Shown here: piece after piece, positions 1,447 through 44,673 of the stretch
How the letters are laid out: every line of letters begins with the position of its first letter
Numbering within the stretch: the stretch's first letter is position 1
Virus record (IMG/VR): IMGVR_UViG_3300013117_000343
Span: 1-50,508 of that record
DNA: 50,508 nt
From: a virus
Lineage: Duplodnaviria > Caudoviricetes
Direction: 5' to 3' (one strand)
Made by a program: the position numbers and the translations under genes
The notes under the pieces: model-generated
Database searches by the model: none
The model's input: the letters and a program-made list of their open reading frames with translations, nothing else
What the model was told of the DNA's origin: nothing

Positions 1447-3734
1447 TATAGTTTGAGCTCTTTCATATCACTCCAAACTTTTCCTGTCTTTATTTCTACT
1501 GGGATGACTAAGGCTTCCCCCACTGATACATCAAATGGGAATTCAAAGTAGTGTTTGATGAACCTAAATATATGCATTGGGTCAGTCTCGTCTGGGACTT
1601 GCATAAGGACGCTATCATGGACTTGCAACATCATCTCCCAGTCTTGAGGGAGGGCATTATACGCATTGACCAAGCCCATGTTTAAAACATCACTTACAGT
1701 TGACTGAGGGACATATGCGATAGCATCCCTAAGTAAGTCTTGGCTCCACCTCCCAAAGAACATCCTTTTTCTATTAAAGGGGGTTACTAACACTCGGGAC
1801 TTTCTTAGCATATCCTCTACTTGTTTGTGCCAAAGCTTAATACGAGGGTAATGGGCATAATACTGATTAAGAAGTTCTCTAGCACGAACTTCCGATTGTC
1901 CAATGAGTCTTGAGAAAGTCCTCGCTCCAATTCCATAATTAGACGCATGGATAAGTGTTTTAGCAAGTTGTCTTTCGTCTGAGGTGACATTGTTAAGTGT
2001 CTTCCCAAATATGTCCGAAGCGTTTTTCTTGTGGATATCGCCTCCTTGCTCAAATAGAATTTGTAAACGGGTTTCTTTTGCCAGAAACGCCACCACTCTC
2101 GCCTCTGCCTGGGATAAATCAGCGTTGACGAATGTTTTCCCAGGGTCTGACACAAATATACTTCGAACCAACCCCTTTCTATCAATGTTTTGAAGATTGG
2201 TGCCACTTCCGTAGACACTTTTTCTACTGGATAACCTGCCAGTTTCTGTTCCTGTGATGACATAATTACACCTTATCCTTCCATCGGGATCTAGAGGAGC
2301 CCTAATATAGTTGGAGAGCATATGCCTAACCTTCCTAATATCCAGGATTAGGTCAAATACTGGGTTTGGGAATTTTTTAGATAGAGCTTGGATTGCCTCT
2401 TCGTCGGCTGTGAGAGACTTGGTCTTCCTGTTTCGTTGAGGAGGGAGGCCCATCTCGGTATAGAGAAACTCTACCATTTGCTTGGAGCTTGAAGGGTTGA
2501 GGGGATGACCCACAGCCTTCTCTAACTTTACCTCCATATCAGTAAGGTCCTTGGAGAGGTTCTCATCTATTTGAGCCCTCTTCTTCAGGTCTATTTTAAC
2601 ACCTGTTCTCTGCATACCGATTAGAGGTTTTATTAGTTTGTGTGAGTGCTTCCTGTAAAAGTCCCAAGTCTTGAACTCTTTAAGTTCCTTTACTATTTCC
2701 ATTGCACATTCCCAGGTAACTACAGTATCGAGACAGTTGTATTTCCAGAGGACGTCTGGCCCACCAGTCCCTGGCATATCTTTGTAGAAAGGGCGTGTGG
2801 TATAAATAGAACAGAGGAAGTCCAAACCCTTACGAAGTTCGGGGTATATACAGTGAAAGCCTACCATTGTGTCTAGCCAAAGGTTTGGGACTTCTACTCC
2901 CCATTTGTCTCTTAACCAAATCATATCATACTGAGCGTTCTGAGCAATAAACTTAATAGTTGGAGATTGGAAGAGTTTTCTAACTCTACCTATTATTGCT
3001 ATCTCCTCTTCACTAGTCCACCAAGAGTTACCAGAGTAGAAGATAGGGATGCAGATAGAGTTCTCTTTAGACCAGCCTAAACCTAGACAGAGGATTTGGT
3101 TTTCACTGTCAGTCTCAATATCAAAGGCTATGTATTTCTCCCTCTCAAGTGAGGCCAGAGTCTTCATAATGGTTTCAAATGAGGGATTTATTATGAAGAT
3201 ATCTTTGTAATCAGCGGGAGGGTAGGGAGTTTTAACCTCTTCTCTAATACGGTTAAAGTCCATTACTACTATGGGCTTAAACTCATACTGACGCATTACA
3301 GAGTCTGGGTGGATGGTGGGAATTACCTTTATCCCATTGAAGTTTAGAATACTCCCTCTACGTTTAATAACTGTTTTGAGACCTGTGAGTGCGTAGAGGG
3401 GTTCGTTGCCTAGAGCTACTATTACGTTTGGTCTATACTTTAGGATTTCTTCTTGGAGTCTTTTATGAGATTGAGTAAGATATTCTGTTGGCTTCCATCT
3501 TTTCTTGTCTGTGTAATATACACTAAAATCATTTTTGGGAGGTCTCTCTTGAACTACATTATCTATATAGCACTCACTTCTCTTAATACCAGTTTCACTT
3601 AGTATCTGGTCTAATACTCTTCCTGCACCACCAACAAATGGGCGTCCTATCTTTTCTTCTTGTGCTCCTGGGCACTCACCTACTAACCATAGTTTTGCAC
3701 TTTTATCACCCTCTCCATACACCTTCTTCTCCAT
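1446..3734 (-). CDS. polA: Family A DNA polymerase with N-terminal family-4 uracil-DNA-glycosylase-like domain and 3'-5' exonuclease (SPO1-type architecture)
   Basis: UDG motifs GECPG, PFVGGAG, TIHP; exonuclease motifs FDIET, QNAQYD, YNCLD; TGRLSS, NLQNI, motif A DLSQAEAR, motif B RQLAKTLIHASNYG, motif C VHDS. Confidence 0.95.
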   Translation of the reverse strand: MEKKVYGEGDKSAKLWLVGECPGAQEEKIGRPFVGGAGRVLDQILSETGIKRSECYIDNVVQERPPKNDFSVYYTDKKRWKPTEYLTQSHKRLQEEILKYRPNVIVALGNEPLYALTGLKTVIKRRGSILNFNGIKVIPTIHPDSVMRQYEFKPIVVMDFNRIREEVKTPYPPADYKDIFIINPSFETIMKTLASLEREKYIAFDIETDSENQILCLGLGWSKENSICIPIFYSGNSWWTSEEEIAIIGRVRKLFQSPTIKFIAQNAQYDMIWLRDKWGVEVPNLWLDTMVGFHCIYPELRKGLDFLCSIYTTRPFYKDMPGTGGPDVLWKYNCLDTVVTWECAMEIVKELKEFKTWDFYRKHSHKLIKPLIGMQRTGVKIDLKKRAQIDENLSKDLTDMEVKLEKAVGHPLNPSSSKQMVEFLYTEMGLPPQRNRKTKSLTADEEAIQALSKKFPNPVFDLILDIRKVRHMLSNYIRAPLDPDGRIRCNYVITGTETGRLSSRKSVYGSGTNLQNIDRKGLVRSIFVSDPGKTFVNADLSQAEARVVAFLAKETRLQILFEQGGDIHKKNASDIFGKTLNNVTSDERQLAKTLIHASNYGIGARTFSRLIGQSEVRARELLNQYYAHYPRIKLWHKQVEDMLRKSRVLVTPFNRKRMFFGRWSQDLLRDAIAYVPQSTVSDVLNMGLVNAYNALPQDWEMMLQVHDSVLMQVPDETDPMHIFRFIKHYFEFPFDVSVGEALVIPVEIKTGKVWSDMKELKL

Positions 3735-4224: not shown

Positions 4225-5493
4225 CTATTCCTCCAATCTTTTAACTATGTTGTTGTAGTAGGTGTTATCTAACTCTATCCCTATCCCTATTCTACTAAGT
4301 TCCTTAGCCGCAACAATGGTGCTTCCGCTTCCTGCAAAGGGGTCTAATACTTTTTCACCAGGAAGGCTAGATAAACCAATAAGACCTCGCAAGAACTCTG
4401 TTGGCTTTTCCGTTGGGTGGATTTTCTTATTAGAGGGGACCCTCTTAATTGAGAAGATATCTCTAGGTGTTCCATTAAGTTTCCTCCCTCCTTTCCTACA
4501 ATAGAAGAATGGTTCGTAAGAGGAGGTAAAGTTAACAGACTGACTTGGAAAACCTCCACTGAGTTTGTCCCAGATTAGTGGGATGTGGTGGACCTGGAAG
4601 CCTACTTTTTCCAGTAGCTCTTTAATTTTGTTGTAATGTTGACATCCGAAGAAGATGTAAGCGTGCCTGTCATCCTTTAAAATGCGGAACATTTGAGCGA
4701 AGGCCTTATCCAACATGTCAAGGATGGTGAATTCATCATCTGGGCAGGGATATACCTTGTTGTGGGTCTTTTTAAAGGACTCGGCTTCGCCTAGGTTTAT
4801 CCCAAAGGGTGGGTCGGCTATGATAAGGTCAATTGACCCAGTTTCCATCTTTCCCATCTCCTTCACACAGTTGCCATGGATGATGTTGGGTGTTGCTATT
4901 ATCTTGCTGGTTTTAAGCCTCTTAGCTAGTTCAGCGTTTAGGATGTCTTCCTGCTTTTGCTTTAACTTTTTAAAAGCTACACTTTTGGACTTCTCTTTTT
5001 TGAGTTCGGGGAAGGCTTTCATTCCCCTAGCTAAAGCTATATCCATGGAGACTGTTCCCATACTTTCACCAAGGGCTTCAGCAGTGTCTCTCAACTTCCA
5101 ACCATCAGAGTCGTGTCCTTTAACTGCACTTCCATAAATCTTCTGTTTAAGTTTGTGAAGCTCAGCTTTTGCATTAACTTCCTCTTGCCAAGTGAAGGCT
5201 TCCCGCTGGATATTCTCCTCTAACTCAAGCTCTTTCTTCTCAAGTTCGTTCAGGTCCTTTCGAAACTTAACCTCAATTGAGCCCCACCTCTCCTCATTTT
5301 TAGTCCGTTTGAGTATTGAGAGGCAGGCTCGGAGCCTTCTCTCACCAGCTATTAACCTGTTCTTGTCATCTATTACAATTGGGTGGATTAAACCATAGGT
5401 CATAATAGATTGGGCAAGTTTGTCTACTCCCTCAAACTTCTTTCTAAACCTACTTCCTACTTGGATTTCGGTTATTTTAATTTTGGGCATCAC
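4225..5493 (-). CDS. ParB/Srx N-terminal domain fused to a beta-class N6A/N4C DNA methyltransferase
   Basis: GLIHPIVI..LIAGERRLRA..ELEENIQRE (ParB); ADPPF, HPTEKP, VLDPFAGSGST (MTase motif IV before motif I). Confidence 0.93.
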   Translation of the reverse strand: MMPKIKITEIQVGSRFRKKFEGVDKLAQSIMTYGLIHPIVIDDKNRLIAGERRLRACLSILKRTKNEERWGSIEVKFRKDLNELEKKELELEENIQREAFTWQEEVNAKAELHKLKQKIYGSAVKGHDSDGWKLRDTAEALGESMGTVSMDIALARGMKAFPELKKEKSKSVAFKKLKQKQEDILNAELAKRLKTSKIIATPNIIHGNCVKEMGKMETGSIDLIIADPPFGINLGEAESFKKTHNKVYPCPDDEFTILDMLDKAFAQMFRILKDDRHAYIFFGCQHYNKIKELLEKVGFQVHHIPLIWDKLSGGFPSQSVNFTSSYEPFFYCRKGGRKLNGTPRDIFSIKRVPSNKKIHPTEKPTEFLRGLIGLSSLPGEKVLDPFAGSGSTIVAAKELSRIGIGIELDNTYYNNIVKRLEE

Positions 5494-5882: not shown

Positions 5883-5903
5883 TAATTTCAATTATTGAAC
5901 TTA
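5883..5903. promoter_or_regulatory. 21-bp palindromic operator, copy 1
   Basis: Minus strand TAAGTTCAATAATTGAAATTA, directly upstream of an RBS. Confidence 0.75.
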
Positions 5904-8696: not shown

Positions 8697-9548
8697 TCAA
8701 TTCACCCCCTTCCCCTTAATCTCAACTGAACAGTGCCCCCACTCTTGAAACCTATTAAACTTCACCTTTACATCACATGGGTTGCACACCCCATATTCTT
8801 CACATCTTCTAAACCCTCTAATTAACTTAACCTTATCATTTAATATGTGACCCATTGGGTTAATATCATTGTAGAGGTCATGATGACATCTAAAAATAAA
8901 ACCAGAGGGGTTTATCAAGAGCTCAGAAGGCTTACACTTAACAGTTAGTTTTCTAAGTTTAGTGCAAGCATTTTGATATTTGTAAGTGTTCTTCTCCCAA
9001 CCAGTGCTTAAAAACCTTTTAGTTCTAAAGTCTATGCCCCTCTCCTTACACATCCTAATCATAGACCTGTTAGTGTTCATAAACATAATATTATCAAATC
9101 CCCAGATGCCCACCTTATACCCCATCTTTTGAAGGGTGTGAACCTTGCTAACCATCTCAGCTTGATTGGTTTTTTTGTGTAGGCTAAACCTAATACTGGC
9201 ATATTTAGCTCTTCTTTTAAATACGTAAGGGTCAACTCTACTTACGAACTCATCCAGGTTAAACATACCATTAGTTACTAGGTCTAACCCTATCCCCTTA
9301 CGATATAAACCATCTACTATGGTATAAAATTGTGGGTGGATAGTCGGCTCTCCTCCTTGGAGAGTAAGAGGTAGGTCTGCTCTGTTCTGTATGCGAGCCA
9401 AACCATCTATCCACCCCGTAGCTCCTAACTCCTCCGTCTTAACGAGCCTGTCGAACCTATTGATACAGTAGGTGCAAGCCATGTTACACCGAAAAGTTAA
9501 GAAAACTCCTACGTAGTTATAAGTTTTGGGTAGTGTGATTGGTCTCAT
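8697..9548 (-). CDS. Radical SAM enzyme with C-terminal twitch/SPASM-like cysteines
   Basis: CNMACTYC, GGEPTIHP, VTNG, C...GFIFRCH...CEEYGVCNPCD. Confidence 0.92.
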   Translation of the reverse strand: MRPITLPKTYNYVGVFLTFRCNMACTYCINRFDRLVKTEELGATGWIDGLARIQNRADLPLTLQGGEPTIHPQFYTIVDGLYRKGIGLDLVTNGMFNLDEFVSRVDPYVFKRRAKYASIRFSLHKKTNQAEMVSKVHTLQKMGYKVGIWGFDNIMFMNTNRSMIRMCKERGIDFRTKRFLSTGWEKNTYKYQNACTKLRKLTVKCKPSELLINPSGFIFRCHHDLYNDINPMGHILNDKVKLIRGFRRCEEYGVCNPCDVKVKFNRFQEWGHCSVEIKGKGVN

Positions 9549-10056
9549 ATAAGTCCTTTTCTTCTATTACCAAAGTTGGTAATGGTGAGATAAACATACT
9601 GTTGTAGAGGCTTTGTATTCTCTCAGGTTTTACTAATCGGACGGTTGTGATGTGGGGCTCAAACACGTTGGTGAAGTCATGGTTGTGTTGAAGACCTACA
9701 TCAAATTTGCCATCCTGGGAACCAATTATCGCTCTGATTAGGATTGGAAGAGTGAATTGCCCACCACTCATCTTCGGCACTAGAGCCATGTGGTTTATAA
9801 TTGCATCGGCGGCTATTAGCATGAAGTCCATTCTTTGGAACACCACTATAGGTTTGTAGCCTTGCATCGCAAGACCTATTGCAGCCCCTGCAATTAAGTT
9901 TTCGCAGATGGGCATCTCTAAGCATTTTTTCGCATTTACTTTGGTCATGGTGCCATATATATCTCCTGCGTTTTTTAACCCTTCTCCGAGGAACACGGTC
10001 TTTGGTTGTTCTCCTAGCCATGTCATCACCTCCGTTAGTTCTTGTTTATAGGTCAT
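9517..10056 (-). CDS. TPP-dependent E1-beta/transketolase pyrimidine-binding domain only (no C-terminal domain)
   Basis: VFLGE, EMPICENLIAGAAIGLAMQGYKPIV, DAIINH, GLQH; 179 aa. Confidence 0.9.
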   Translation of the reverse strand: MTYKQELTEVMTWLGEQPKTVFLGEGLKNAGDIYGTMTKVNAKKCLEMPICENLIAGAAIGLAMQGYKPIVVFQRMDFMLIAADAIINHMALVPKMSGGQFTLPILIRAIIGSQDGKFDVGLQHNHDFTNVFEPHITTVRLVKPERIQSLYNSMFISPLPTLVIEEKDLYETNHTTQNL

Positions 10057-10377: not shown

Positions 10378-10572
10378 TTAACACCCCATCCCTTCTACTG
10401 TTGCCTGTTTTATTATATCTTCTTGGGGGACACTTACATAGTGATGTTTACAAATCCAGACCTTCTTCCCATTGTGTTCTACCACCTGAAAATCTTTGGT
10501 AATGGGTTTCTTGCAGATAGGGCACTGACCCTTATCTACTCTACTAGATACAATGTTATTACATTGAGACAT
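10378..10572 (-). CDS. Small zinc-finger protein
   Basis: CPICKK...WICKHH. Confidence 0.6.
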   Translation of the reverse strand: MSQCNNIVSSRVDKGQCPICKKPITKDFQVVEHNGKKVWICKHHYVSVPQEDIIKQATVEGMGC

Positions 10573-11197
10573 GTGCACCTACCCCCACGTGAGGCCACCT
10601 TCTCACATAGTTATACCTTATTATATTCCTCGCAACCATTGGTGTAAAGTTATGCCATCTCTCTTCTTTGGTGCTCTCCACCGCAAGGTCATTATCCTCT
10701 ATTATGAAGGTGAGAGGTAGACTGCGGGAGTTGCCAAACCTCACTGCCTCCATAAAATGCCCAGTGTCTTCTCCACCATCTCCCACGAAGCACCAGACAT
10801 GACCTTTAGACCTCTTCTTTTTTAATCCAAGGGCTAGACCTACAGCAATAGCACACCCTCCACCCACTATCGCTGAGGTTAGGAAGTTAATTGACTTATC
10901 GTAGATGTGCATGCTCCTTCCCTCTCCTTTGCAGATGCCACTCTTCCTACCTAAGATTTCATCATGGAGCTTTTGGGCATCTCCTCCTTTTAAGAGATAG
11001 TGGTAATGGTTTCTATGAGAACTAACTACCCAATCTTTAGGTTTAATTGAACTAAAGAGTGAGATTAGCTGCTCCTCATTTCCTCCTGATAAGTGGATGG
11101 GGCAGGAAATCTTACCTTGTTTAAATAAAGTCTTAATGTTCTCCTCAAACCCTATGAGCTCTTCCTTTGTCCATCTCTTATTAGGTATACTCTTCAT
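10559..11197 (-). CDS. TPP-dependent dehydrogenase E1-alpha-like subunit, short form
   Basis: HLSGGNE, SSHRNHYH, GRSMH, AIVGGG, TPP motif GDG..EDN; 212 aa. Confidence 0.92.
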   Translation of the reverse strand: MKSIPNKRWTKEELIGFEENIKTLFKQGKISCPIHLSGGNEEQLISLFSSIKPKDWVVSSHRNHYHYLLKGGDAQKLHDEILGRKSGICKGEGRSMHIYDKSINFLTSAIVGGGCAIAVGLALGLKKKRSKGHVWCFVGDGGEDTGHFMEAVRFGNSRSLPLTFIIEDNDLAVESTKEERWHNFTPMVARNIIRYNYVRRWPHVGVGAHVSM

Positions 11198-11409
11198 CTT
11201 AATATCTTTGATACCTCCATCATCGCCTCTATTTTACCGTTTATGAGCAATGGGTGATAAATACCCTGTTGACTTTTAATTACATCAAGGTATTTATTCA
11301 TGCTCTTTAATATCCTTATGCTCTCCCTTATCTTACCTATTTCAAACCAGACCTTCGCTGTTATTATAAGACATAAAATGTGGAATAAAGTAACTATCAA
11401 AGTCCCCAT
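11194..11409 (-). CDS. Small protein with N-terminal transmembrane helix
   Basis: LIVTLFHILCLIITAKVW. Confidence 0.55.
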   Translation of the reverse strand: MGTLIVTLFHILCLIITAKVWFEIGKIRESIRILKSMNKYLDVIKSQQGIYHPLLINGKIEAMMEVSKILR

Positions 11410-12755
11410 ACTCTCCTCCTTGTCTCTAATCTAATCCGATTTAGCTCTTCCAGGGAAACTCCCATCATCCCTGCTATCTTTTTAGCCTTAAGAGTTGAGC
11501 TAAAGTTAATCCTATCCCACTCATAGGCTCTAATCATAGTTATCTCCTTAGAGGTGAACTCTGAGGTCTCTATTTGACCCTCTCTCCAGCTATCTCCCTC
11601 TTTTAGGCACTTCCCTTTGACGCACATGTCCCACAGGCGAGTATGTTTAAGAGGGGTGGCTGTAAAGACCTTAGTATAATCGGCGTCTATATACTCGGCT
11701 ACTTTAAGGGTCTTTCTAATCTCAGTCCAGGTCTCCCCTGGGAAACCTATGATGAAATTAGCCGCCACAAAGATACCATACTCTTTAGCATCTTGTATAA
11801 CACATTTGGCGTCTTCTAAGTCTATCCTTTTACCTATGATTTCCCTTTGAACTCTCCTGCTTCCACTCTCAATGGCTACATCGATATACTTACAGCCGCT
11901 CTTAGCCATAAGTCCAATCATCTCATCATCCATTTTGATTACTGAGGTAGCTATCATAGACCAAGGCATAGTGAGACCTCTCCTAATCATCTCTTGGAAA
12001 AGACTCTTAGCCCTCTTCTCATTATATAGTAGGTTATCGTCGTCAAAAATAAGAGACTTAATCTTATAATCCTTCTTAAGCCAGCTAATCTCTTCAATAA
12101 CATTTTCTACACTCCTTCCTCTCCAGCGTTTGCCCATTATCTCCTCTACTTGACAGAAACAACACCCATACGGACAGCCCCTAGACGTTATAATGCGTCC
12201 ATAAGGATACGAACACGGAGCGTCTACACTTTTCCGTATGGGTGGTTTATTTATATATGATTTTAAATCAATTAAGTCGTATGCGGGTAGGGGGAGTTCA
12301 TTTAACTTTTGGATTGGGAGGGCTTGGTGAATACCATGCCAACTATAGCCAAGGGTTATTTGGTTCATTAGGTATTCTCCCTCTCCCTTGACTATTATAT
12401 CTATCTCTGGAGCTTTTATTAAGATGTCAGCGTTCATACTGGGAGATACTCCTCCAACTACTACTTGTATTTTTTTAGATACAGCTTTAACTGCTTTGGC
12501 GGCTCTAAGAGTGGCTCCAAGTTGAGAGTCTATCATAGTAGTTATACCTACCATGTCTGGTTTCTCTTTCTCTACACGTTTTGCAAATACTGATGTTTCT
12601 AAGTCCTCTTTATAAGCATCTATTATATTTACCATAGTCCCATTCTTTCTAACTTTGGCGGCAAGGAGGCATAGATTGTAAGGTATGTAATCCCAGAGGA
12701 AATCCTTGTTTGTCTCACTCCATCTAAAGTTGGGGACTACAAGGGTTAGGTTCAC
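11397..12755 (-). CDS. Cobalamin-binding (class B) radical SAM enzyme, putative methyltransferase
   Basis: PDMVGIT, VVVGG, KGEGE, TSRGCPYGCCFC, FDDDN, IESGS, FIIGFPGET. Confidence 0.95.
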   Translation of the reverse strand: MNLTLVVPNFRWSETNKDFLWDYIPYNLCLLAAKVRKNGTMVNIIDAYKEDLETSVFAKRVEKEKPDMVGITTMIDSQLGATLRAAKAVKAVSKKIQVVVGGVSPSMNADILIKAPEIDIIVKGEGEYLMNQITLGYSWHGIHQALPIQKLNELPLPAYDLIDLKSYINKPPIRKSVDAPCSYPYGRIITSRGCPYGCCFCQVEEIMGKRWRGRSVENVIEEISWLKKDYKIKSLIFDDDNLLYNEKRAKSLFQEMIRRGLTMPWSMIATSVIKMDDEMIGLMAKSGCKYIDVAIESGSRRVQREIIGKRIDLEDAKCVIQDAKEYGIFVAANFIIGFPGETWTEIRKTLKVAEYIDADYTKVFTATPLKHTRLWDMCVKGKCLKEGDSWREGQIETSEFTSKEITMIRAYEWDRINFSSTLKAKKIAGMMGVSLEELNRIRLETRRRVWGL

Positions 12756-14153: not shown

Positions 14154-14174
14154 TAATTTCAATTTTTGAACTTA
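14154..14174. promoter_or_regulatory. 21-bp palindromic operator, copy 2
   Basis: Minus strand TAAGTTCAAAAATTGAAATTA; the final A begins an ATG. Confidence 0.75.
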
Positions 14175-15270: not shown

Positions 15271-17304
15271 CTAAATAAAGTTAATATGCTCAGGTGGATT
15301 AAGGTAGTTCCATATGAATGCATTTGTGAAATCATGGCGGCACGAGCCAGCACACATAGTATGCACATCAAAATCTTCCCTCATATACTTAATTATATGC
15401 CAATACCTATCACTATCAATAATCTCTTTTAGAGTATTTTTCTTAAGGTCACCATAACAATAATCACTATTATTGAATAGATAACCACAAGGGTAGCATT
15501 TAGAATTCCCACTAATTTGAAAAATAAGGGGACAATCTACACATCTATCATAAGGTCTCCTACCCTTACTCGCTATCATCCCCCATTTAGGGACAATTTT
15601 AGTCTTATCATTAGATAGCTTCTGAGCTTGTTTCAACACCTCTAACACTCTCTTATTATCATACCAGTTTAAATTAAAGTGGGACATACCCTTACACCCT
15701 GGGTCAGAGAACTGTTTAATTACGAAATAGTCAACTCCCTCTCTTACTGCCCACTTAGCCTCTGGTATTACTTGCTCAAGACAGTCAGGTATAAACACCA
15801 TCTGAAGTCCAATGGTGCACTTATACCCTTTAGTTTTCTTAATATAGATTGCAGAACGGATAGCGGCCTGCACACGCTCCCACTGAGGAACACCATGAAT
15901 GGTTTTATATCCTCCTGAGTCAACGGCAGATAGGTTGAAGCGAAGCCATGTGCAGGTGGAGAGAAGAATTCTTAACTTAGTCTCATCTAAAAAGATACCA
16001 TTTGTTGCAAATCCTATGTCTAACCCCCACTTCTTACCCTCAATACAAGCATCATAGACGGCTGGGTTAAGTGTAGGCTCCCCATCTCCCGTGAGGGTAA
16101 GAGACTTAACTCCCAAGTATGGGGCATCTATAAAAAGTTTAATGAGTATATCTCTTGGTATAACATCCATTGACATCTTTTGATGTATACCATAACAATT
16201 GTGAACACAAAGTCCTTTTGCAATAAATGTATGACTTTCGGTTGTTAGGTCATACACTTCAGTAACTCTTCCGATTGACACAAAATTAACTCTTAATACG
16301 CCCTCAATTTTACAATCAAAAGCTTTTTCAAACTTTCTTGTTATAGCGGGAGTTGTTACTTGCATAAATCTAATACGATTTTCATAACCTTTTGTAACTC
16401 TTACCACTTTTACACTTTTACCATAATCCTCTAACGTGTTTGGAATGTGGAGCTTGTTCAATGACAATGTTATCATATGCAATACAGAAGTGTCGCTATT
16501 AGATATTCTCAAATTGTTTCCGCTTATACTTCCTTCAGCGTCAAAAATACCTCCAAGGTATCCTCTGTAGAAGCTTTGACTTTGCCCCAACAATAAGTCT
16601 TTGTAACTTATAAATTTTTTAAGAAGATGTGTGTGCTCTTTTCCTATTACATAAAGCTTATGCTTACTTCTTTTATAAGAAACAATGAAACCTATATCAA
16701 TTAGGTATTGATAGGCTCTATCAAGGGCTTCTATGTCAATCATGTCCAATCTCATATGATAGGTAGAGTATCTAGGTGATATATTAAATGTGCCATCACC
16801 ATCTATTATTCCTTTTACATAACCTATTTTGTAATCTCTATCTATTAACTGTATAGGTATTTGCTTTCCTATGTAATGAACATCATTATTATTCGTTAGT
16901 TTTCCAGCATCTTTCCATCCTCTATGTTTGACAAGGACTTGGTGGTCTGGAGTAATCTCTAATGTTTCTCCATTTGTAAAGTGCACTACATTGGTGATAG
17001 CCATTCTTTTGTGGATATCTGTAACAGTGGTATATTTTAATCTTCTTTGCTTATGTATATTTCCAATCTCATCAAAACCTATAACAGTGTCCCCAACCTT
17101 GACATCTTTTATTGGCTTTGTGCCCAAAGGTGTGGTTATTGGTGTATCTCCTGTTACACAATAAATACATTTAGCATTACACCTCTTAGTAGCACCAATA
17201 TCTATATGGAGGGGATATATTTTCCAACTGTTTCGGTAGTGGTTATTAACCCTGTCCAGGTGCCATAAGAGTTTACACCCATCAAAAAGGTAGGGGTTAT
17301 CCAC
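15271..17304 (-). CDS. Radical SAM/SPASM-twitch enzyme interrupted by an intein
   Basis: Spliced motif CNAKCIY/CYG; TGDGEPTLNP, ATNG, CYPCG...YCYGDL, CAGSCRH. Confidence 0.93.
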   Translation of the reverse strand: MDNPYLFDGCKLLWHLDRVNNHYRNSWKIYPLHIDIGATKRCNAKCIYCVTGDTPITTPLGTKPIKDVKVGDTVIGFDEIGNIHKQRRLKYTTVTDIHKRMAITNVVHFTNGETLEITPDHQVLVKHRGWKDAGKLTNNNDVHYIGKQIPIQLIDRDYKIGYVKGIIDGDGTFNISPRYSTYHMRLDMIDIEALDRAYQYLIDIGFIVSYKRSKHKLYVIGKEHTHLLKKFISYKDLLLGQSQSFYRGYLGGIFDAEGSISGNNLRISNSDTSVLHMITLSLNKLHIPNTLEDYGKSVKVVRVTKGYENRIRFMQVTTPAITRKFEKAFDCKIEGVLRVNFVSIGRVTEVYDLTTESHTFIAKGLCVHNCYGIHQKMSMDVIPRDILIKLFIDAPYLGVKSLTLTGDGEPTLNPAVYDACIEGKKWGLDIGFATNGIFLDETKLRILLSTCTWLRFNLSAVDSGGYKTIHGVPQWERVQAAIRSAIYIKKTKGYKCTIGLQMVFIPDCLEQVIPEAKWAVREGVDYFVIKQFSDPGCKGMSHFNLNWYDNKRVLEVLKQAQKLSNDKTKIVPKWGMIASKGRRPYDRCVDCPLIFQISGNSKCYPCGYLFNNSDYCYGDLKKNTLKEIIDSDRYWHIIKYMREDFDVHTMCAGSCRHDFTNAFIWNYLNPPEHINFI
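16198..17160 (-). mobile_element. 321-aa intein with LAGLIDADG homing endonuclease
   Basis: Block A CVTGDTPI, block B ITPDHQV, YVKGIIDGDG and YLGGIFDAEG, blocks F/G VYDLTTESHTFIAKGLCVHN followed by +1 Cys. Confidence 0.96.
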
Positions 17305-17765: not shown

Positions 17766-17991
17766 GGTTCTTCTCCTTAAGATAAATGTTTCCAAATTTA
17801 TCCATCATGACTTCGTCTTCGTCTATGCTGTAGCGAGGGAAGCCATACTCACATTGCCAGACGCCTTTACTTAACCTAACTAGAGGTCTCCCACAACTAC
17901 ATTTGGCGTTCCCATCAAAGATTGCGAACCACTGCCCTCCACTTAGCATCTCACTTTTATAATCCCCTTCAAACGGGACTCTCTCACTCAC
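17752..17991 (-). CDS. Small zinc-ribbon-like protein
   Basis: KCSCGRPL...GVWQCEYG. Confidence 0.6.
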   Translation of the reverse strand: MSERVPFEGDYKSEMLSGGQWFAIFDGNAKCSCGRPLVRLSKGVWQCEYGFPRYSIDEDEVMMDKFGNIYLKEKNHDPN

Positions 17992-19081
17992 TCTTCCCCT
18001 CTTTCCTAACCTTCTCTATAACCTTTTCAAAGTCATTACCCATACCAATATCCTGCACAACATTATCCCCCACTATTTTAAAATGCTTTCTCCTATTAAA
18101 TGCATCTTTTCCTTGAAGCTCAGTCTCAACTCCCTTATTAAAGTCATTTAACTCAATAGCCTTCTTCTTACCATAGGCTGCCTTCCTAGCTCCCAACAGG
18201 ATTGCATTTTTAATCTGACCTCCAGTGAGGTCATGGGTAGATAAAATCTCAAAGCAGACACATTTAGCTAACGGTGCCTCTTTAGGGATTAGGTTTCTCC
18301 AGATTTTTGCTCGGGACGCCTTGTCTGGTTTAGTGAACTCAAGCTTAAGACATATCCTTCTTTCAAGTGCGGGGTCTAACTCATGGCTTCTATTAGTGGT
18401 GAGGATACAGGTCCCCTCAAACCGCTCAATCTCGGTGAGGAGGGTATTTATCTCAGCGGCTAGGATAGCTCCCACCTTATTCCTGCTGTATACTAGACTA
18501 TCGCACTCATCTAATATTACTACTGCATCTTTAGAATGGGCAGAGGAAAATGCCTTGGCTATATTCCTCTCTGCCTGTCCTGGGACTGAGCTCTGGATAT
18601 TTTTGGTGCTTAACATTAAATAATCTTTACCAAGAGCCTCCGCAATAGCTTCAGCACACATAGTCTTCCCAGTTCCTGGAGGTCCCCAGAAGAGGAGGAT
18701 AGCACCCTTCCCCTTCTCAATAGTAGAGGCAAACCCCCACTCCTGAAATATCTTCTCACTTATCTCAGCGTTAGATTGGGAGATTGTCTCTAAGATTAAC
18801 TGCTTAACCTTCTCAGGGAGGACTAATATATTCATCATACTATTAACCTTCTTCCTCTTCTTAATCTCCTGTCTCCCTATTACCCTGAACTCGGCTTGGG
18901 TGATATAACTTCGCCCAACATCTAATATGTAATGCTTACCTTGACAATAGCCAGTAATAGTATACTCCTTACCTATGGTGTAACTATGACTACAAGTATT
19001 ACTCATAACCACCACCTTAGTTCCAAGAGGCAGTAACTTAACTGGCAGCTCTGGTCTTCTCAGCCAATCCTCTGAAGTCAT
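17984..19081 (-). CDS. Classical AAA+ ATPase with short N-terminal beta domain
   Basis: GPPGTGKT, VILDECD, second region of homology TTNR..LDPALERR, LTGGQIKN. Confidence 0.92.
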   Translation of the reverse strand: MTSEDWLRRPELPVKLLPLGTKVVVMSNTCSHSYTIGKEYTITGYCQGKHYILDVGRSYITQAEFRVIGRQEIKKRKKVNSMMNILVLPEKVKQLILETISQSNAEISEKIFQEWGFASTIEKGKGAILLFWGPPGTGKTMCAEAIAEALGKDYLMLSTKNIQSSVPGQAERNIAKAFSSAHSKDAVVILDECDSLVYSRNKVGAILAAEINTLLTEIERFEGTCILTTNRSHELDPALERRICLKLEFTKPDKASRAKIWRNLIPKEAPLAKCVCFEILSTHDLTGGQIKNAILLGARKAAYGKKKAIELNDFNKGVETELQGKDAFNRRKHFKIVGDNVVQDIGMGNDFEKVIEKVRKEGKSE

Positions 19082-21740: not shown

Positions 21741-22006
21741 TATCCTCTTCCTCTTCTCCTATTACCTCTTTCACCTTATGCACCTTAACCTGCACAAGTC
21801 CCTCTTCATCGGTCTCTACCCTCAATATTACCTCAAATAAACCTTTCATCTCCCTATCCTCCTTATATACCACTCATCCATTATGTCAGATAAAGTAACA
21901 TTATGAGTTTCCATTAAATCTACTATCTGTGTAACATTATCTATCTTTCTAGGTTCCCTTATAAACTTATCCTTAATATCTGTCTTAGCCATTATAACCT
22001 CCTTTG

Positions 22007-22027
22007 TAAGTTCAATAATTGAACTTA
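22007..22027. promoter_or_regulatory. 21-bp palindromic operator, copy 4 (most symmetric)
   Basis: TAAGTTCAA-TAA-TTGAACTTA with perfect arms; followed on the minus strand by AAAGGAGG RBS. Confidence 0.8.
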
Positions 22028-22031
22028 CTCC

Positions 22032-22283
22032 CTAATTATTATTCAACTTAGCAAGCGTAGTATCTACAAAATTTAAGTGTCCCTTACTTATCAACATACA
22101 TATCACCCCACTCGCATATGATAACACATTCAGTGGGTTATCCCCTTTATCACTCGCAAGGGCAATCAACGCCTCCATAACCCCTTTCTTCGCCATCAAC
22201 TTCATAACCTTATTAGCAAGCTTCTTTTGGTCTTTCGTGAGACCACTCCTATTTCCCTCATCCCCAAACTTCAAAGGCTCCAT
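22032..22283 (-). CDS. Hypothetical early protein
   Basis: GGAGGAG RBS. Confidence 0.65.
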   Translation of the reverse strand: MEPLKFGDEGNRSGLTKDQKKLANKVMKLMAKKGVMEALIALASDKGDNPLNVLSYASGVICMLISKGHLNFVDTTLAKLNNN

Positions 22284-22690
22284 CTCAACTCCTCCTGGTC
22301 TTCACCCAATGGTCTTATCTCCACCCTCTGAGCGCCATTTACTTCCATACTCATCCCCAAACTATCCAATGGTTCCACATAGCTCTCCGCAAACAACCAT
22401 CTCATTATATCATCAGGCACCTTCTACCCCCTCTCTACCAAATACATCAATCATTACCCTATTTGTCCACTTCAACTTCCCATTCGGTTTAATCTTATCA
22501 ACAGGTGGTTTATTTTGATATGCTAAATATTTATCCAACTTATCCATTTTATCTCACCCCTTCTCCTTTACTTATTTTTGTTACAATGTGTGTTTTGAAT
22601 ATTATGTTCGTAAGTTCAAACTTTTAAAAAGTAGTATTTTTAGTTTAGGTCTTGAAAAAGCAATTACCTATGGTTCAAGTATATATAAGA

Positions 22691-22719
22691 AGTATATCAC
22701 GAGGTAAGGGCTTTGTCAA
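22691..22719 (-). promoter_or_regulatory. Leftward sigma70-type early promoter
   Basis: TTGACA-17 bp-TATACT with extended TG and upstream A-tract. Confidence 0.88.
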
Positions 22720-22979
22720 GTTATTTTTTTTGTTGTAACCTATTGGGATTATTAGGGTTGTGAGAAGTCAAAAAAAATAAATTTTGAGGGTATTTCAAAA
22801 ATTGAGAGGGCGACCTCAAAGGGTGAAATTGCGTTTTTGGGGTTTGGTGAGCCAGTAGAGGCAAAGTAATAGCGAGGGTATAGGGGAGTATAGGGTTGGA
22901 AAAGATGAGGGCTTATATTGGAGATTTGAGTAGAGGCGGGGTTGAGGGTGTAAGTTCAATAAAGAGATTTTAAATTACC

Positions 22980-23320
22980 TTAAAACACGGAGTTCATTGG
23001 AGTTATGTAAATCCGTGTAACTCTGTGTAACTTTGAAATTACGCTAAGCTGTTGGGATTATTGGGGTTATAGAAAAAGAACCAAAGTTACACAGTTACAC
23101 AGGGGGTTGCTGGGTGCTTTTAAATGTTTTTAAGAAGTATGTTTATATATATATTTTATATATATTATAAATATATTTATAAAGTAAAATAGGATACCCG
23201 TGTAACTGTGTAACTTTCGCCAGATTTCTATAAGTCCTTCTAATTATTGGGGTTCGGAGAAAATGAGGGTTACACAGAGTTACACAAAACGCTGTAAGTC
23301 TAATAAACTCCGTGTTTTAA
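22980..23320. repeat. Nested in-register inverted repeat around an AT-rich core; probable replication origin
   Basis: Perfect arm pairs 22980-22994/23306-23320, 23015-23031/23269-23285, 23067-23075/23225-23233 and 23083-23100/23200-23217 are all centred on 23150; eight GTTACAC units. Confidence 0.85.
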
Positions 23321-23495
23321 AGAGATTTAAAAAGTCCTGTAATTTCAATAAATCACTTATGATGTCAATACAATACTAACCTGTTAATACAATGTTAGTT
23401 TATGGGAGTAATTTTCAAAAATGGTGGGATAAAACTAATATATCGGCGTGTTATCTATGTGATGTTTTATAAAAATGTTAGAGTTAATGTTAGAG

Positions 23496-23846
23496 TTAGA
23501 GTGTTATACCTAACTCTGCGAGTTTATCTGCTGATAAACCTTGCAAAACTTTTATTGCTTGTTGATTTTTGCGTCGTGTTGCTTTCAAACGTTCTTTGAC
23601 TTCTGGTGAAAGTTCACGAGATACGATGTGTCCATTGTCAGTTTTTAACTTTAACCTTGCTGTATTACATTGATTGATTTTATGCTTATCATTGATGAGT
23701 TTCAAAACTTCTTTCTCTGATAAGTTATCCGTTGCGTCGGCAACGCTATCAAATAATGTAATCTCACAAGTTCCCGTAATTTCTGTTCCTGCGTCGTCAA
23801 AGTCATCAGGGACATTGTATTTTATACCTACTTCAAGTTTACGCAT
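23496..23846 (-). CDS. Isolated hypothetical protein with its own promoter
   Basis: GGAGG precedes ATG 23846; 116 aa. Confidence 0.75.
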   Translation of the reverse strand: MRKLEVGIKYNVPDDFDDAGTEITGTCEITLFDSVADATDNLSEKEVLKLINDKHKINQCNTARLKLKTDNGHIVSRELSPEVKERLKATRRKNQQAIKVLQGLSADKLAELGITL

Positions 23847-23926
23847 AGACCTCCGAGCATAGCATAAACACGCCGACATATTTAGTTTTTAAAGAGCAAT
23901 ATGATTATACTAATGGTTGTATTATA

Positions 23927-23954
23927 AGTATAGCATATATAACTATAATGTCAA
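23927..23954 (-). promoter_or_regulatory. Leftward sigma70-type promoter
   Basis: TTGACA-16 bp-TATACT with extended TG. Confidence 0.7.
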
Positions 23955-24263
23955 GGGAAATCTACATAAATCGTATCAGGGCTAATGTTGTAAGTGATTG
24001 CCTCCATTAGAGTTAGAGAAACGCCCCGAGCCGTCGGCTCTGCGTGTATGTATAATATAGGTAATGCCCCTATATGTATGCTATGTAATCAAGGTATGTT
24101 ATGTTATTTAATATAACCTACCCACCACACCCCCCAGAGTGTTTAGTTTTATTAGTTTACCCCCAAATTTACGCTACCAAAATTTGAGGCTCAAAAGTTA
24201 TAAGTTCAATGATTTCAAAGGGTTAGAGCAAATAAAAAAATCCGTAATTTCAACACTTTTCCC

Positions 24264-24292
24264 TTGACAAAACCTACCTTGTGTGATATACT
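24264..24292 (+). promoter_or_regulatory. Rightward sigma70-type promoter for the morphogenesis arm
   Basis: TTGACA-17 bp-TATACT with extended TG. Confidence 0.88.
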
Positions 24293-24412
24293 ATACAATG
24301 GAAATATAGTATGTTTGGGGTATAGATTTTAAAAGTTGAACAAAGCCGATTTGGATTTTTTGAAATTACACGCCTCGTCTTGACGAAGACTGGGGTGATA
24401 GTTACTAAGCTT

Positions 24413-24466
24413 AGCGACACATTACATTGACTTAAATGTTGATGCCTTTGTGTCGCTTTTTTGTTT
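24413..24466 (+). terminator. Terminator/attenuator-like stem in the late leader
   Basis: AGCGACACA (24413-24421) pairs with TGTGTCGCT (24449-24457), followed by TTTTTGTTT. Confidence 0.6.
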
Positions 24467-24483
24467 AGTAGAGGGAGGTGGAA

Positions 24484-25017
24484 ATGGGACAGGTAAAACC
24501 ACATAATATGAAGGCTATATCTACTCTTGCAAATGAACCTGTTAATATGAGTTCTAGAATTCAACTGATGATTGCTATGGATATTGCGGGTTCGAGTGGT
24601 AAGGATATGGAGAGTGCGCTGGGTATGTCAGGGACTAGGATATCTGCTATTAGGAATAGTCCTCTTTTTATGTCAAGAAGGAAGAGGAAGTGGAGAGAGC
24701 TTCAGGATAGGGTAATTGATAATAAGGTTGATGGGATAGTTAGTGGAGACCCTGTAGAGAGTAAAATTAAGGCACTTGCTATTAAGGCTATAGAGGCTCA
24801 AGAGAAGATGTTGGATGGTGCTGGGAGTGAGTTTGTAAGGAACTCTATTTCTAACTCCATACTTGATAGGGCGGGGTATAAAGCTCATACTGAGAAGACT
24901 AAGATTACGGTGGAAGTTACGGATAAGATGGCTGATAGGTTTGAGCGAGTTATGAAAATGGCGCAAAGTGGTGATAGTAGCAGTAAGGTATCTATTACAA
25001 CAGAACGAGAAGAATAA
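24484..25017 (+). CDS. Putative terminase small subunit
   Basis: Directly upstream of TerL; HTH-like N-terminus (ISAIRNSPLF) and C-terminal SILDRAG. Confidence 0.7.
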   Translation: MGQVKPHNMKAISTLANEPVNMSSRIQLMIAMDIAGSSGKDMESALGMSGTRISAIRNSPLFMSRRKRKWRELQDRVIDNKVDGIVSGDPVESKIKALAIKAIEAQEKMLDGAGSEFVRNSISNSILDRAGYKAHTEKTKITVEVTDKMADRFERVMKMAQSGDSSSKVSITTEREE

Positions 25018-25065
25018 TGATAGATGACATAGATGCTATGCGTCTTGTTAATAGAGGTGAAAGTA

Positions 25066-26754
25066 ATGGACTTAGTAAGGATGTCAGAAAAACAGAGGTT
25101 AGTTTTAAGGAAACAATGTCTTCGTAGTCTTTACGCATTTTGTGTTGGTGTGATGGGCTACGACGATATTACGGAAGACCTCCATGGAGAGTATTGTAGG
25201 TTTTTAGAGGGGGATAGTAGAAGGAAACAAGCTACTATGCCCCGTTCTTTTGTTAAGACTTGGATTGGGTCGATAGCTTACCCGATTTGGGCGACCTTGA
25301 TTAGACGAGCGGCTGATGAGTTCCCAGAAGGGACTGACCCAACTGATAAGTTTTGGAAATTGGGACCTGATATGAGGATACTTGTTGCAAGTTATGTAAT
25401 TAGTAATGCTGAGAAGATGATTTCCCTTATTAGGAAGACTTATGAGAGTAATCCTGTGATGCAGATGCTGTTTCCAGAAGTAATACCGAGGAATTTTAAT
25501 AAGATTAGGTGGAGTAATCAGAGTGCTTGTATAAATAGAGCTAATAATTATACTGAAAGTACTTTTGAGGCAGCTGGAGTAGGTGGTGCCTCTATCTCTC
25601 GGCATTATGATTTGGTAGTAGAGGATGACCTTGTATATGCCAAGAAAGATGACCTCACTGGGAAGGAGTTACATCCAAGTCAGGAAGATATAGATAAGGC
25701 TATTGGGTGGCATAAGCTCACTCACTCACTATTGGTTCCTGGTAGACATACTAGGATTTATAATATTGGGACTAGATGGGCTAAGAGAGACCTTATTAAG
25801 TATATCTGGGATAATGAGCCAAGTTATGAGAGGTTTATGAGGGCTGCTGTTAAGCTTGAGCAACTAAACGCTGGTTTAAATTGGGAGGAGTGTGACCCAG
25901 AGTGGCCTGAGTGTTATGACAAGAAACAGTTAAGAGGGATAAGAGATGCCCAAGGCACCTACATATTCTCCACGCAATACCTCCTCTTTCCACGCTCGCC
26001 TGAAGAGATGTTATTCAAAAAGCCATGGCTTCAGCTTTACACTAGTCCAGGAGAGGTTCCTGAGACCATTAGGAAGTTTACCACTGTAGACCTTGCTGAA
26101 TGGGGAAGCTCTAAACGCAAGAGGGGGGACTGTAATGCAGTTGTCCTTACTTGTGGTTGGGACCACCTTAATCACGTATGGTTAGTCCACTATGATACTG
26201 GTAGGTTTGACCCGAGTGAGGTAATTAAACTAATGGGGAAGCATTGGAACTTATTTCACCCTGAGAGTATCAGTGTGGAGAGTGTATATTATCAGAAGTC
26301 ACTTGCCCACTTTGCCCGCATTTACATGGAAGATGGTAAGGTGCCTTGGATGCGTATTCATAATATTAAACCTGAGGGGAATGAGAGTAAGGAACTTAGG
26401 ATTAGAGCTATTGAGCCAATTGCTTCAAACCTTGCTGTTCATTGTAAAGATAGTCATAAAGAGTTTATAGATGAGTTTTGTGATTATGTCCCTAATGACC
26501 ATACTTGTAAGAAGGATATATTGGATGCCCTTGCTTATCAAATTCAGGTGGCTAGACCTGGTGTCGCTAAAAGGGATGTTAGTGTGAGGAATAGGAATGA
26601 TTTCCTCCCTTTAGGGAATATTGATGACTTTTTAAAGGAGGCCTGGGGAAAGGGGAGAGGGAAAGGTATCTTTGGAGACCAACTTCCTAAAACTGACCCC
26701 TTTACTGAGCAAGAGGTTGAGGTTATACTGGAAGACCCGTTGGTTGGTTTATAA
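25066..26754 (+). CDS. terL: Terminase large subunit
   Basis: Walker A MPRSFVKT, Walker B DLVVEDD, IGTRW, FSTQY, nuclease acidic residues TVDLA..GD..KDILDALAY. Confidence 0.93.
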   Translation: MDLVRMSEKQRLVLRKQCLRSLYAFCVGVMGYDDITEDLHGEYCRFLEGDSRRKQATMPRSFVKTWIGSIAYPIWATLIRRAADEFPEGTDPTDKFWKLGPDMRILVASYVISNAEKMISLIRKTYESNPVMQMLFPEVIPRNFNKIRWSNQSACINRANNYTESTFEAAGVGGASISRHYDLVVEDDLVYAKKDDLTGKELHPSQEDIDKAIGWHKLTHSLLVPGRHTRIYNIGTRWAKRDLIKYIWDNEPSYERFMRAAVKLEQLNAGLNWEECDPEWPECYDKKQLRGIRDAQGTYIFSTQYLLFPRSPEEMLFKKPWLQLYTSPGEVPETIRKFTTVDLAEWGSSKRKRGDCNAVVLTCGWDHLNHVWLVHYDTGRFDPSEVIKLMGKHWNLFHPESISVESVYYQKSLAHFARIYMEDGKVPWMRIHNIKPEGNESKELRIRAIEPIASNLAVHCKDSHKEFIDEFCDYVPNDHTCKKDILDALAYQIQVARPGVAKRDVSVRNRNDFLPLGNIDDFLKEAWGKGRGKGIFGDQLPKTDPFTEQEVEVILEDPLVGL

Positions 26755-26772
26755 GTTCAAAAATTGAAATTA
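26752..26772. promoter_or_regulatory. 21-bp palindromic operator, copy 5
   Basis: TAAGTTCAAAAATTGAAATTA; begins with the terL stop codon and the final A begins the next ATG. Confidence 0.75.
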
Positions 26773-35155: not shown

Positions 35156-35176
35156 TAAGTTCAATATTTGAAATTA
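35156..35176. promoter_or_regulatory. 21-bp palindromic operator, copy 6
   Basis: TAAGTTCAATATTTGAAATTA followed by TAGGAGG RBS. Confidence 0.75.
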
Positions 35177-44100: not shown

Positions 44101-44673
44101 ATGGCTATAATAAACTTAGGTCAAATAGGAGAGCAGCGGGAAAGTTGGGCTAAACCTTTAGCTGATAGGGAGAGTAAGTATACTGATGCTCTTATTAAAG
44201 CCAAAGCAACAGAGGCTGAGGCTGAGAGTAAGAGGAAGGATGAGAGTAGAGCTTATATTAAACAAGCTTACAAGAACTACTGGAAGAAGAGTGAGACAGA
44301 GAGAGGTCTCTTTGATAATACTCCAGAGGGTAAGGAGTTTCATAAACTTGCTAAAAAACATATTGATGAGTGGTATGATAAAGAGGGGAAACCCATTAGG
44401 TATCCTATAGAGAATGAACCTACCCCTGAGGAGGAGAATGCAGCTAAACTTGCACTTGAGAGGGCTAAAAGAGGTCTAGACCCATCACCAGAAGGAGCAG
44501 CTGCTATTATCAAAGTTATTCAAAATGGTATAATGGACCAAACTATAGAAGAGGCTGAGGGTGCGCAGGCAATCAAATACTATATGCAATTCATCCAGAG
44601 CCGATTTACTGGCGGCTTGGGTGGGGGAGCAGGAGCAGACACTCAAGACCCACTAAACCTAATGGGAAGATAA
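44101..44673 (+). CDS. Putative ejection protein 2
   Basis: Position, helical and charged, C-terminal QDPLNLM. Confidence 0.55.
   Translation: MAIINLGQIGEQRESWAKPLADRESKYTDALIKAKATEAEAESKRKDESRAYIKQAYKNYWKKSETERGLFDNTPEGKEFHKLAKKHIDEWYDKEGKPIRYPIENEPTPEEENAAKLALERAKRGLDPSPEGAAAIIKVIQNGIMDQTIEEAEGAQAIKYYMQFIQSRFTGGLGGGAGADTQDPLNLMGR

Follow-up and report, generated by a model that had tools for sequence, protein, structure and literature searches.

A nested dyad around the A/T core upstream of the terminase genes of a 50-kb phage: a probable replication origin of the SaPI type

The window, meaning the whole stretch of DNA that was analysed, is the complete IMG/VR virus record IMGVR_UViG_3300013117_000343 of 50,508 bp. 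Its ends overlap by 119 bp, and as this overlap has an assembler k-mer-like size and falls within a small ORF (50309-50539 in circular numbering), the map was taken to be circular. Four sequencing runs, present as contigs and labelled marine metagenome, were matched with shares of 0.29, 0.07, 0.07 and 0.05, which gives no evidence of habitat. There are two gene arms. The one on the minus strand extends from 22547 down to 247 and encodes a Cdc48-type AAA ATPase, several radical-SAM proteins, a PD-(D/E)XK exonuclease, a Sak4-like protein, a ParB_N-methylase, a UDG-exo-PolA polymerase (1446-3734) and, as the last gene, a DUF3987 protein, while the plus-strand arm carries terS and terL followed by head and tail genes. 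The features that matter for the region between the arms are as follows.

247 to 1446, minus strand: DUF3987 protein (PF13148, E 4.8e-18)
22691 to 22719, minus strand: sigma-70-like promoter of the early/replication arm (TTGACA-17-TATACT, 11/12 consensus)
23496 to 23846, minus strand: small conserved gene between the dyad element and terS
23927 to 23954, minus strand: sigma-70-like promoter (11/12 consensus), reading through the small gene toward the element
24264 to 24292, plus strand: sigma-70-like promoter of the packaging and structural arm (11/12 consensus)
24478 to 25017, plus strand: small terminase subunit, TerS (phrog_2538, E 1.2e-5; probable ATG at 24485)
25033 to 26754, plus strand: large terminase subunit, TerL (phrog_38, E 3.3e-60)

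The gene content was read from a Pfam and/or PHROGs scan of 40 ORFs, which took in part of the short ORFs. Within the minus-strand arm, the gene at 15271-17304 (minus strand) encodes a radical-SAM/SPASM protein with an intein (Hint/Intein_splicing and LAGLIDADG domains), and the product of 1446-3734 (minus strand) is a family A DNA polymerase with N-terminal uracil-DNA-glycosylase-like and 3'-5' exonuclease domains, an architecture shared by the relative G005 (L124:16315-18603). Three auxiliary-metabolism-like genes (9517-10056, 10559-11197 and 11397-12755) comprise a split TPP-dependent E1 dehydrogenase/transketolase pair and a B12-binding radical-SAM enzyme.

Two short sequences recur across the genome. 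A 21-bp palindrome, TAA(G/T)TTCAA-N3-TTGAA(C/A/G)TTA, is present at 5883-5903, 14154-14174, 22007-22027, 26752-26772, 35156-35176 and 45814-45834, with half-sites elsewhere (for example 22611, 22951 and 24201). It lies directly 5' of a ribosome binding site or start codon at four of the six sites (5883, 22007, 26752 and 35156), on both arms, and the copy at 45814 falls within the large gene 44673-48782. The palindrome may serve as an operator, a phage-specific promoter or an RNA hairpin. With up to 1 mismatch allowed, the 9-mer TTGAACTTA is found 39 times where 23.9 occurrences are expected, and in the relatives L062, L066, L075, L078 and L081 it adjoins gene starts.

The dyad element sits between two leftward transcription units. 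An earlier note, made from the letters of the window, had placed its A/T tract at the point where the coding strand switches; the exact switch turned out to be about 0.8-1 kb to the right of the A/T core, because the minus-strand gene 23496-23846 and the divergent promoters 23954-23927 (minus) and 24264-24292 (plus) come in between. The small gene is kept in 23 related loci besides the window, and its strand varies among them while its position is always between the A/T core and terS. Its protein is modelled as a beta-hairpin with long helices (pLDDT 90.3) and gave no Foldseek match at E <= 0.001, no Pfam family above the cut-off and no sequence match in the PDB. As a reader of the repeats described below the small protein was rejected by eye, since its sequence does not track the repeat word. 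Just before terS, at about 24416-24470 and downstream of promoter 24264-24292, a long GC-ended hairpin with a T-run was noticed by eye; it has a large loop and was not listed by the terminator scan, and together with the promoter it may form a leader or antitermination arrangement for the late arm. A further motif, TTGTTGTAACCTATTG (core AACCTATTG), is kept across relatives, being found at 22729-22745 in the window, at about 795 in L003, 240 in L084 and 165 in L086, and in G011. It lies about 10-30 bp upstream of the TTGACA -35 hexamer in the window, L003 and L084, and in G011 there is one copy per dyad arm. Rfam returned a single match for 22300-24600, a miRNA at chance level (E 0.31), and blastn of 22000-25000 against named phages gave no match.

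The element itself is a set of inverted blocks on a common centre, with these parts.

22968 to 23332, no strand: whole in-register dyad, 365 bp, centre 23150 (i+j = 46300)
22980 to 22994, no strand: outermost 15-bp perfect arm, partner 23306-23320
23015 to 23031, minus strand: outer left iteron doublet (23015, 23025; spacing 10), 17-bp perfect partner 23269-23285
23057 to 23068, plus strand: ATTATTGGGGTT, with a direct second copy at 23243-23254, one per arm
23067 to 23075, no strand: 9-bp perfect arm TTATAGAAA, partner 23225-23233
23086 to 23100, plus strand: inner left iteron doublet (23086, 23094; spacing 8), reading toward the A/T core
23118 to 23190, no strand: A/T-rich core, candidate unwinding element
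23200 to 23214, minus strand: inner right iteron doublet (23200, 23208; spacing 8), reading toward the A/T core
23269 to 23285, plus strand: outer right iteron doublet (23269, 23279; spacing 10)

Perfect complementary runs with i+j = 46300 have their left halves at 22968-22975 (8 bp), 22980-22994 (15 bp), 23015-23031 (17 bp), 23067-23075 (9 bp) and 23083-23100 (18 bp), which bears out the four pairs of 15, 17, 9 and 18 bp around 23150 that the note had described and adds an 8-bp pair. Over the two arms 110 of 182 positions are complementary, making this centre an outlier among the 100,216 centres scanned (110 against a mean of 45.8, sd 6.2; z about 10); the next unrelated centre in the 50.5-kb genome scores 73. 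The spacers have the same length in both arms and are non-complementary, as the note had also said, with 43 of 115 positions outside the perfect blocks paired (37%) against a composition expectation of 28%.

Much of the dyad is built from one word, GTTACAC, which has 20 copies in the genome against 4.7 expected (sd 2.35), a number that none of 100 shuffles reached. Eight of the 20 fall within 23015-23285 as four doublets in alternating orientation, with spacings of 10, 8 / 8, 10, and the other 12 form no doublets; the four alternating doublets of the note are confirmed. The flank of the inner right doublet, GGATACC(C)GTGTAACT, is common to the window and L005. The outermost 15-bp arm contains ACACGG, which by eye resembles the iteron flank and may mark a degenerate fifth site. 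With four words on each side, the tract 23142-23190 is A/T at 48 of 49 bases, so that its description as almost pure A/T holds, and 23142-23191 is the most AT-rich 50-mer of the genome (98%; the next reaches 82%).

To see how much of this is kept, relatives were taken from a TerL alignment, which comprised 47 related viral contigs, and the homologous region was read in 14 distinct TerL relatives. An inverted short word flanks an AT core in nine of them (L005, L062, L065, L068, L078, L070, L071, L082 and L106). The L003 contig begins within the AT core, so that the right-hand array alone is visible, and the remaining four are without the design: in L081 the copies are mostly direct, the L074 contig contains no core, and in L072 and L089 no word is clear. 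Closer relatives use GTTACAC or a near variant, and elsewhere the word is TCACAC, TTTACCAAT, CTACAC or ATTCTCA. The outer tier of the window is not kept, as the extra arrays of L062 are one-sided and the outer sites of L078 are oriented like its inner ones. The pattern GGATACC-N0-1-GTGTAACT matched 56 stretches in viral contigs, of which the L005/L020 contig is the sole true relative.

Ten further genomes were picked through their DUF3987 protein and scanned with the window, G001, G004, G005 and G007. In 11 of the 13 genomes with a located terL (G010 and G012 being counted across contig ends on the assumption of a circular map), the 40-mer richest in A/T is found 0.9-2.7 kb upstream of that gene, the exceptions being G015 and G017. 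The most clustered 7-mer, chosen without bias, coincides with the AT core in 7 genomes out of 15 (8 if a tie in G010 is counted). The words of G010, G011, G012 and G013 are of the TTATGG type, and four of the ten helicase-selected genomes (G009, G014, G015 and G017) have no clear word array. An ungapped dyad scan of 20 sequences found a long exact register at the AT core in three: the window (108/180, z 10.1), G011 (103/180, z 9.4), where the word is GTTATGG, and L078 (106/180, z 9.6); the remaining sequences had z values of 3.8-6.5. The conserved design is therefore opposed arrays around the easiest-to-melt DNA, and exact long register is a recurrent elaboration rather than a family constant. 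For the earlier note this means that the geometry it suggested looking for in related phages is found as inner opposed arrays with an AT core (9/14) and mostly not as a long register (3/20). Its proposal of conserved spacing rather than pairing holds in the window, and a long register is kept in two other lineages, not in the family at large.

The candidate reader of the words, the DUF3987 protein, was modelled with AF2 (pLDDT 90.5, pTM 0.86). Residues 1-321 of the model match MCM AAA+ cores (Foldseek E 3.5e-11; structural Z 17-19.8), the best MCM match being 3f8t with a VIA Z of 19.8 and an rmsd of 3.2 over 251 residues, and also SCCmec Cch (5dgk, Z 11.0) and SaPI5 PriRep5 (7ola, Z 9.9); residues 328-397 match winged-helix domains (Z about 10). 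The model is thus that of an MCM-like AAA+ helicase that ends in a winged helix. Searching the PDB with its sequence gave nothing significant, and the fold comparison alone worked. The family's PHROGs label is 'DNA primase', but the model consists of AAA+ and winged helix only, and the 40 ORFs scanned gave no recognisable primase domain. The available text of PMC5862659 predicts DUF3987 to be a helicase of mobile genetic elements, in proteins whose C-terminal winged helix might recognise origins, and that of PMC11724360 reports 5'-3' helicase activity for a PriCT-DUF3987 protein, calls DUF3987 a member of superfamily 6 and does not mention iterons. In the literature on DUF3987 in connection with helicases or replication origins no origin was described for the family in the texts available, and supplements may hold more.

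The wing domain and the word appear to change together. Genomes with GTT[AC]CAC-type words (the window, G001, G007 and G008) carry the wing motif KCWRxA, and those with TTATGG-type words (G010-G013) carry SYCxNxK, in both cases at the turn and the start of the domain's third helix, the putative recognition helix. As the G007 contig is without the element, its word was taken from L066, which is 100% identical over 7,029 bp. The wing domain was less conserved than the AAA+ core in 12 of 12 comparisons. G004 and G005 have the same terminase family as the window and are without DUF3987. G005 encodes an AAA_25 helicase with a C-terminal wHTH (L124:9442-10488) and has the word ATTCTCA; G004 encodes an AAA_25 protein and a tyrosine integrase (L121:9573-10451 and L121:10999-12051), is without a word array and has a perfect DnaA box adjoining its AT-rich stretch (L089:4050-4200). 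AAA_25 in place of DUF3987 looks like a replicon swap within one phage group. These sequence comparisons suggest that the word changes with the replication module and not with the packaging module. The association of word and wing runs along clades, and common ancestry could yield it without binding. The note's choice of the DUF3987 protein as reader is plausible, given the fold model and a wing motif that tracks the word, but the gene is 22 kb away from the element.

A packaging signal or genome terminus, the alternative that the note had named first, is the strongest competitor, and we consider it unlikely. The word arrays would then be docking sites for TerS and the AT core the cut or junction region. 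The element lies 1-2.7 kb upstream of terS/terL in all relatives, a synteny that would be equally expected of a packaging signal. TerL is distantly related (about 22% identity) to that of T7-like cyanopodoviruses such as cyanophage PP, whose record has both ends at the divergent junction and its right end about 2.3 kb upstream of terL, and several metagenome contigs terminate at or near the AT core (L003, L063, L064 and L070). The contig ends were nevertheless rejected as physical genome ends, because the two G001 ends share about 140 bp across the AT core, where the homopolymer varies in length between L063 and L065, which is a sign of an assembly break. The complete assemblies are all circular, and the overlaps between their ends (119 bp in the window, 127 bp in G004 and 121 bp in G005) were likewise rejected as direct terminal repeats, being all inside ORFs and of k-mer-like sizes.

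The repeat clusters of the P1 pac site lie on both sides of its cleavage region, near the packaging genes, and are read by the terminase. The window element resembles pac in having flanking repeat clusters near packaging genes and differs in that its TerS helix does not track the word. If the putative HTH helix is taken as the DNA reader of TerS, which is an assumption made from sequence, the agreement between TerS and repeats expected of a terminase site was not seen: the helix is nearly identical in L078 (GTTACAC), L071 (TCACAC) and L070 (TTTACCAAT), the words of L070 and L071 being taken from short contigs that have one or two sites per side; L094 has a different helix, though its word is GTTACAC. 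This weakens the packaging alternative, and in addition one gene and two promoters separate the element from terS, and no reason is known why a packaging signal should be the genome's most AT-rich DNA.

The words could also be operators of a phage regulator for the early/late switch at the divergent junction, perhaps by looping between the two 90-bp units, a reading to which we give a little less weight than to packaging. Three near-consensus promoters lie within 1.1 kb, other conserved motifs (GTAAGTTCAA and AACCTATTG) crowd the same ORF-poor 1.9-kb stretch, and transcription from 23954 would cross the element, no terminator-like site having been found between them. However, no promoter of at least 10/12 is inside the block, and the -35 hexamer nearest to the dyad is that of promoter 22691-22719, 261 bp to the left of 22980. 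The genome has no second array of this word, the word varies with the wing domain and the type of the helicase, and no repressor-like protein was recognised among the 40 ORFs scanned.

It is improbable that the unwound strand acts by folding into a long interrupted hairpin or cruciform, as a priming signal or as a nicking or resolution site. Single-stranded 22968-23332 does fold to -65.8 kcal/mol against -27.9 for shuffles (sd 4.0; z -9.45), and the equal spacers yield symmetric internal loops; but such stability is automatic from inverted binding words, and most relatives keep the inner arrays alone, with 40-90 nt of AT core between them, the extras of L062 being one-sided, so that they would be unable to fold such a hairpin. 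The 40 ORFs scanned yielded neither an HUH nuclease nor a resolvase, a protelomerase or an integrase, which leaves the resolution site proposed in the note without its enzyme there. A protelomerase tel site and an attP were rejected, the required enzyme likewise not being found among these ORFs. Least probable of all is a partition or attachment site of a plasmid-like or temperate lifestyle, to which the ParB_N-methylase fusion at 4225-5493 and the tyrosine integrase of G004 could point, as none of the 40 scanned ORFs of the window was recognised as a ParA, an integrase or a protelomerase and the integrase-bearing G004 is the relative without a word array.

Taking the readings together, we consider a replication origin probable; a packaging signal comes next as unlikely, a regulator's operators after that, and all other readings combined last. 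The origin reading, which was also that of the note, is thus the best supported, on comparative evidence and on analogy with SaPIs. The cumulative GC skew has its minimum at 22571, but skew was rejected as an origin test because gene orientation changes nearby, which confounds it with transcription.

If 22968-23332 is the bidirectional origin of this phage, of the SaPI type, as seems probable from the sequence and by analogy, the winged-helix domains of the DUF3987 helicase (247-1446) would read the GTTACAC words, and each of the two opposed arrays, left and right of the A/T core, would receive one helicase ring. Melting of the core 23142-23190 would follow and the rings would move apart, and the UDG-exo-PolA polymerase, encoded beside the helicase, could copy both arms, whose genes point away from the element. 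We infer each of these steps, namely binding of the words by the helicase, melting of the core, the loading of two rings and their orientation, and the start of replication at this place. The exact scaffold found with two different words in three lineages (the window, L078 and G011) could further be a template for symmetric self-loading of two DUF3987 rings without a loader of the ORC/Cdc6 type, each ring being held by an inner and an outer tier, a more speculative idea that we regard as doubtful. If true, it would give bacterial viruses a minimal counterpart of MCM double-hexamer loading, with a recognition code readable from word/wing-domain pairs across hundreds of uncultured phages.

As a type of origin the element would be ordinary. 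Its interest would be that an origin and an initiator are assigned for a large group of uncultured 40-50 kb phages, and that the DUF3987 helicase family gains a cognate DNA site; a relative of this helicase is encoded by 405 viral contigs (244 protein clusters at E <= 1e-10). The natural pairs of word and wing (GTTACAC/KCWRxA and TTATGG/SYCxNxK) are ready material for specificity swaps, and the dyad element could serve as a minimal replicon.

Among known systems, an origin of the DnaA or lambda-O type was rejected: no DnaA box TTATCCACA (up to 1 mismatch) is present between 22504 and 26826, and the words of the window flank both sides of the core. In archaeal oriC, inverted ORB boxes surround the DUE and MCM is loaded between them, and the origins of SV40, papillomavirus and HSV (oriS/oriL) are symmetric. 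The window element is like these in the two-fold symmetry of putative initiator sites about an AT-rich candidate unwinding element, with a helicase predicted to have the MCM fold, and unlike archaeal oriC in that the helicase itself is proposed to read the sites. No Orc1/Cdc6 initiator was found among the 40 ORFs scanned, and the one further AAA+ protein, at 17984-19081, considered as an Orc/Cdc6-like initiator, was rejected as being of the Cdc48/p97 type (E 3e-36). The alpha protein of phage P4, a fused primase and SF3-type helicase acting at ori/crr, is a helicase-type initiator whose C-terminal winged helix reads octamer iterons in both orientations. The window shares with it the helicase-type candidate initiator with a winged helix and short iterons running both ways, and differs in that its DUF3987 protein is without a primase domain.

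The closest likeness is to the origins of SaPIs. According to the available text of PMC9371898, these contain six to twelve iterons of 5-6 nt with an AT-rich centre, at least two iterons being placed to either side of the AT-rich stretch in opposite directions; a self-loading Rep helicase, SF3 or MCM-like, reads them with its C-terminal winged helix, a pair of hexamers is proposed, one for each side, the ori is immediately downstream of rep, and SaPI Reps move 3'-5'. The window has eight perfect words and a possible degenerate outermost pair, an AT-rich centre with about half of the iterons on each side, and inner doublets that provide at least two opposed iterons per side, as do nine of the 14 relatives; its helicase, on the predicted model, is MCM-like with a C-terminal winged helix. 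In contrast to SaPIs, the helicase gene is 22 kb away rather than directly upstream of the ori, the words have 7-8 bp instead of 5-6, an additional, outer tier of oppositely oriented doublets is present, and an exact register extends over 365 bp. The helicase belongs to Pfam DUF3987, and the carrier is a 50-kb phage with its own polymerase whereas a SaPI is a satellite. The published DUF3987 helicase moves 5'-3' and SaPI Reps 3'-5', so the loading geometry of SaPIs is not transferable to the window. We therefore propose, by analogy, that the window element works like a SaPI-type origin, and do not file it as a homologue of any SaPI ori.
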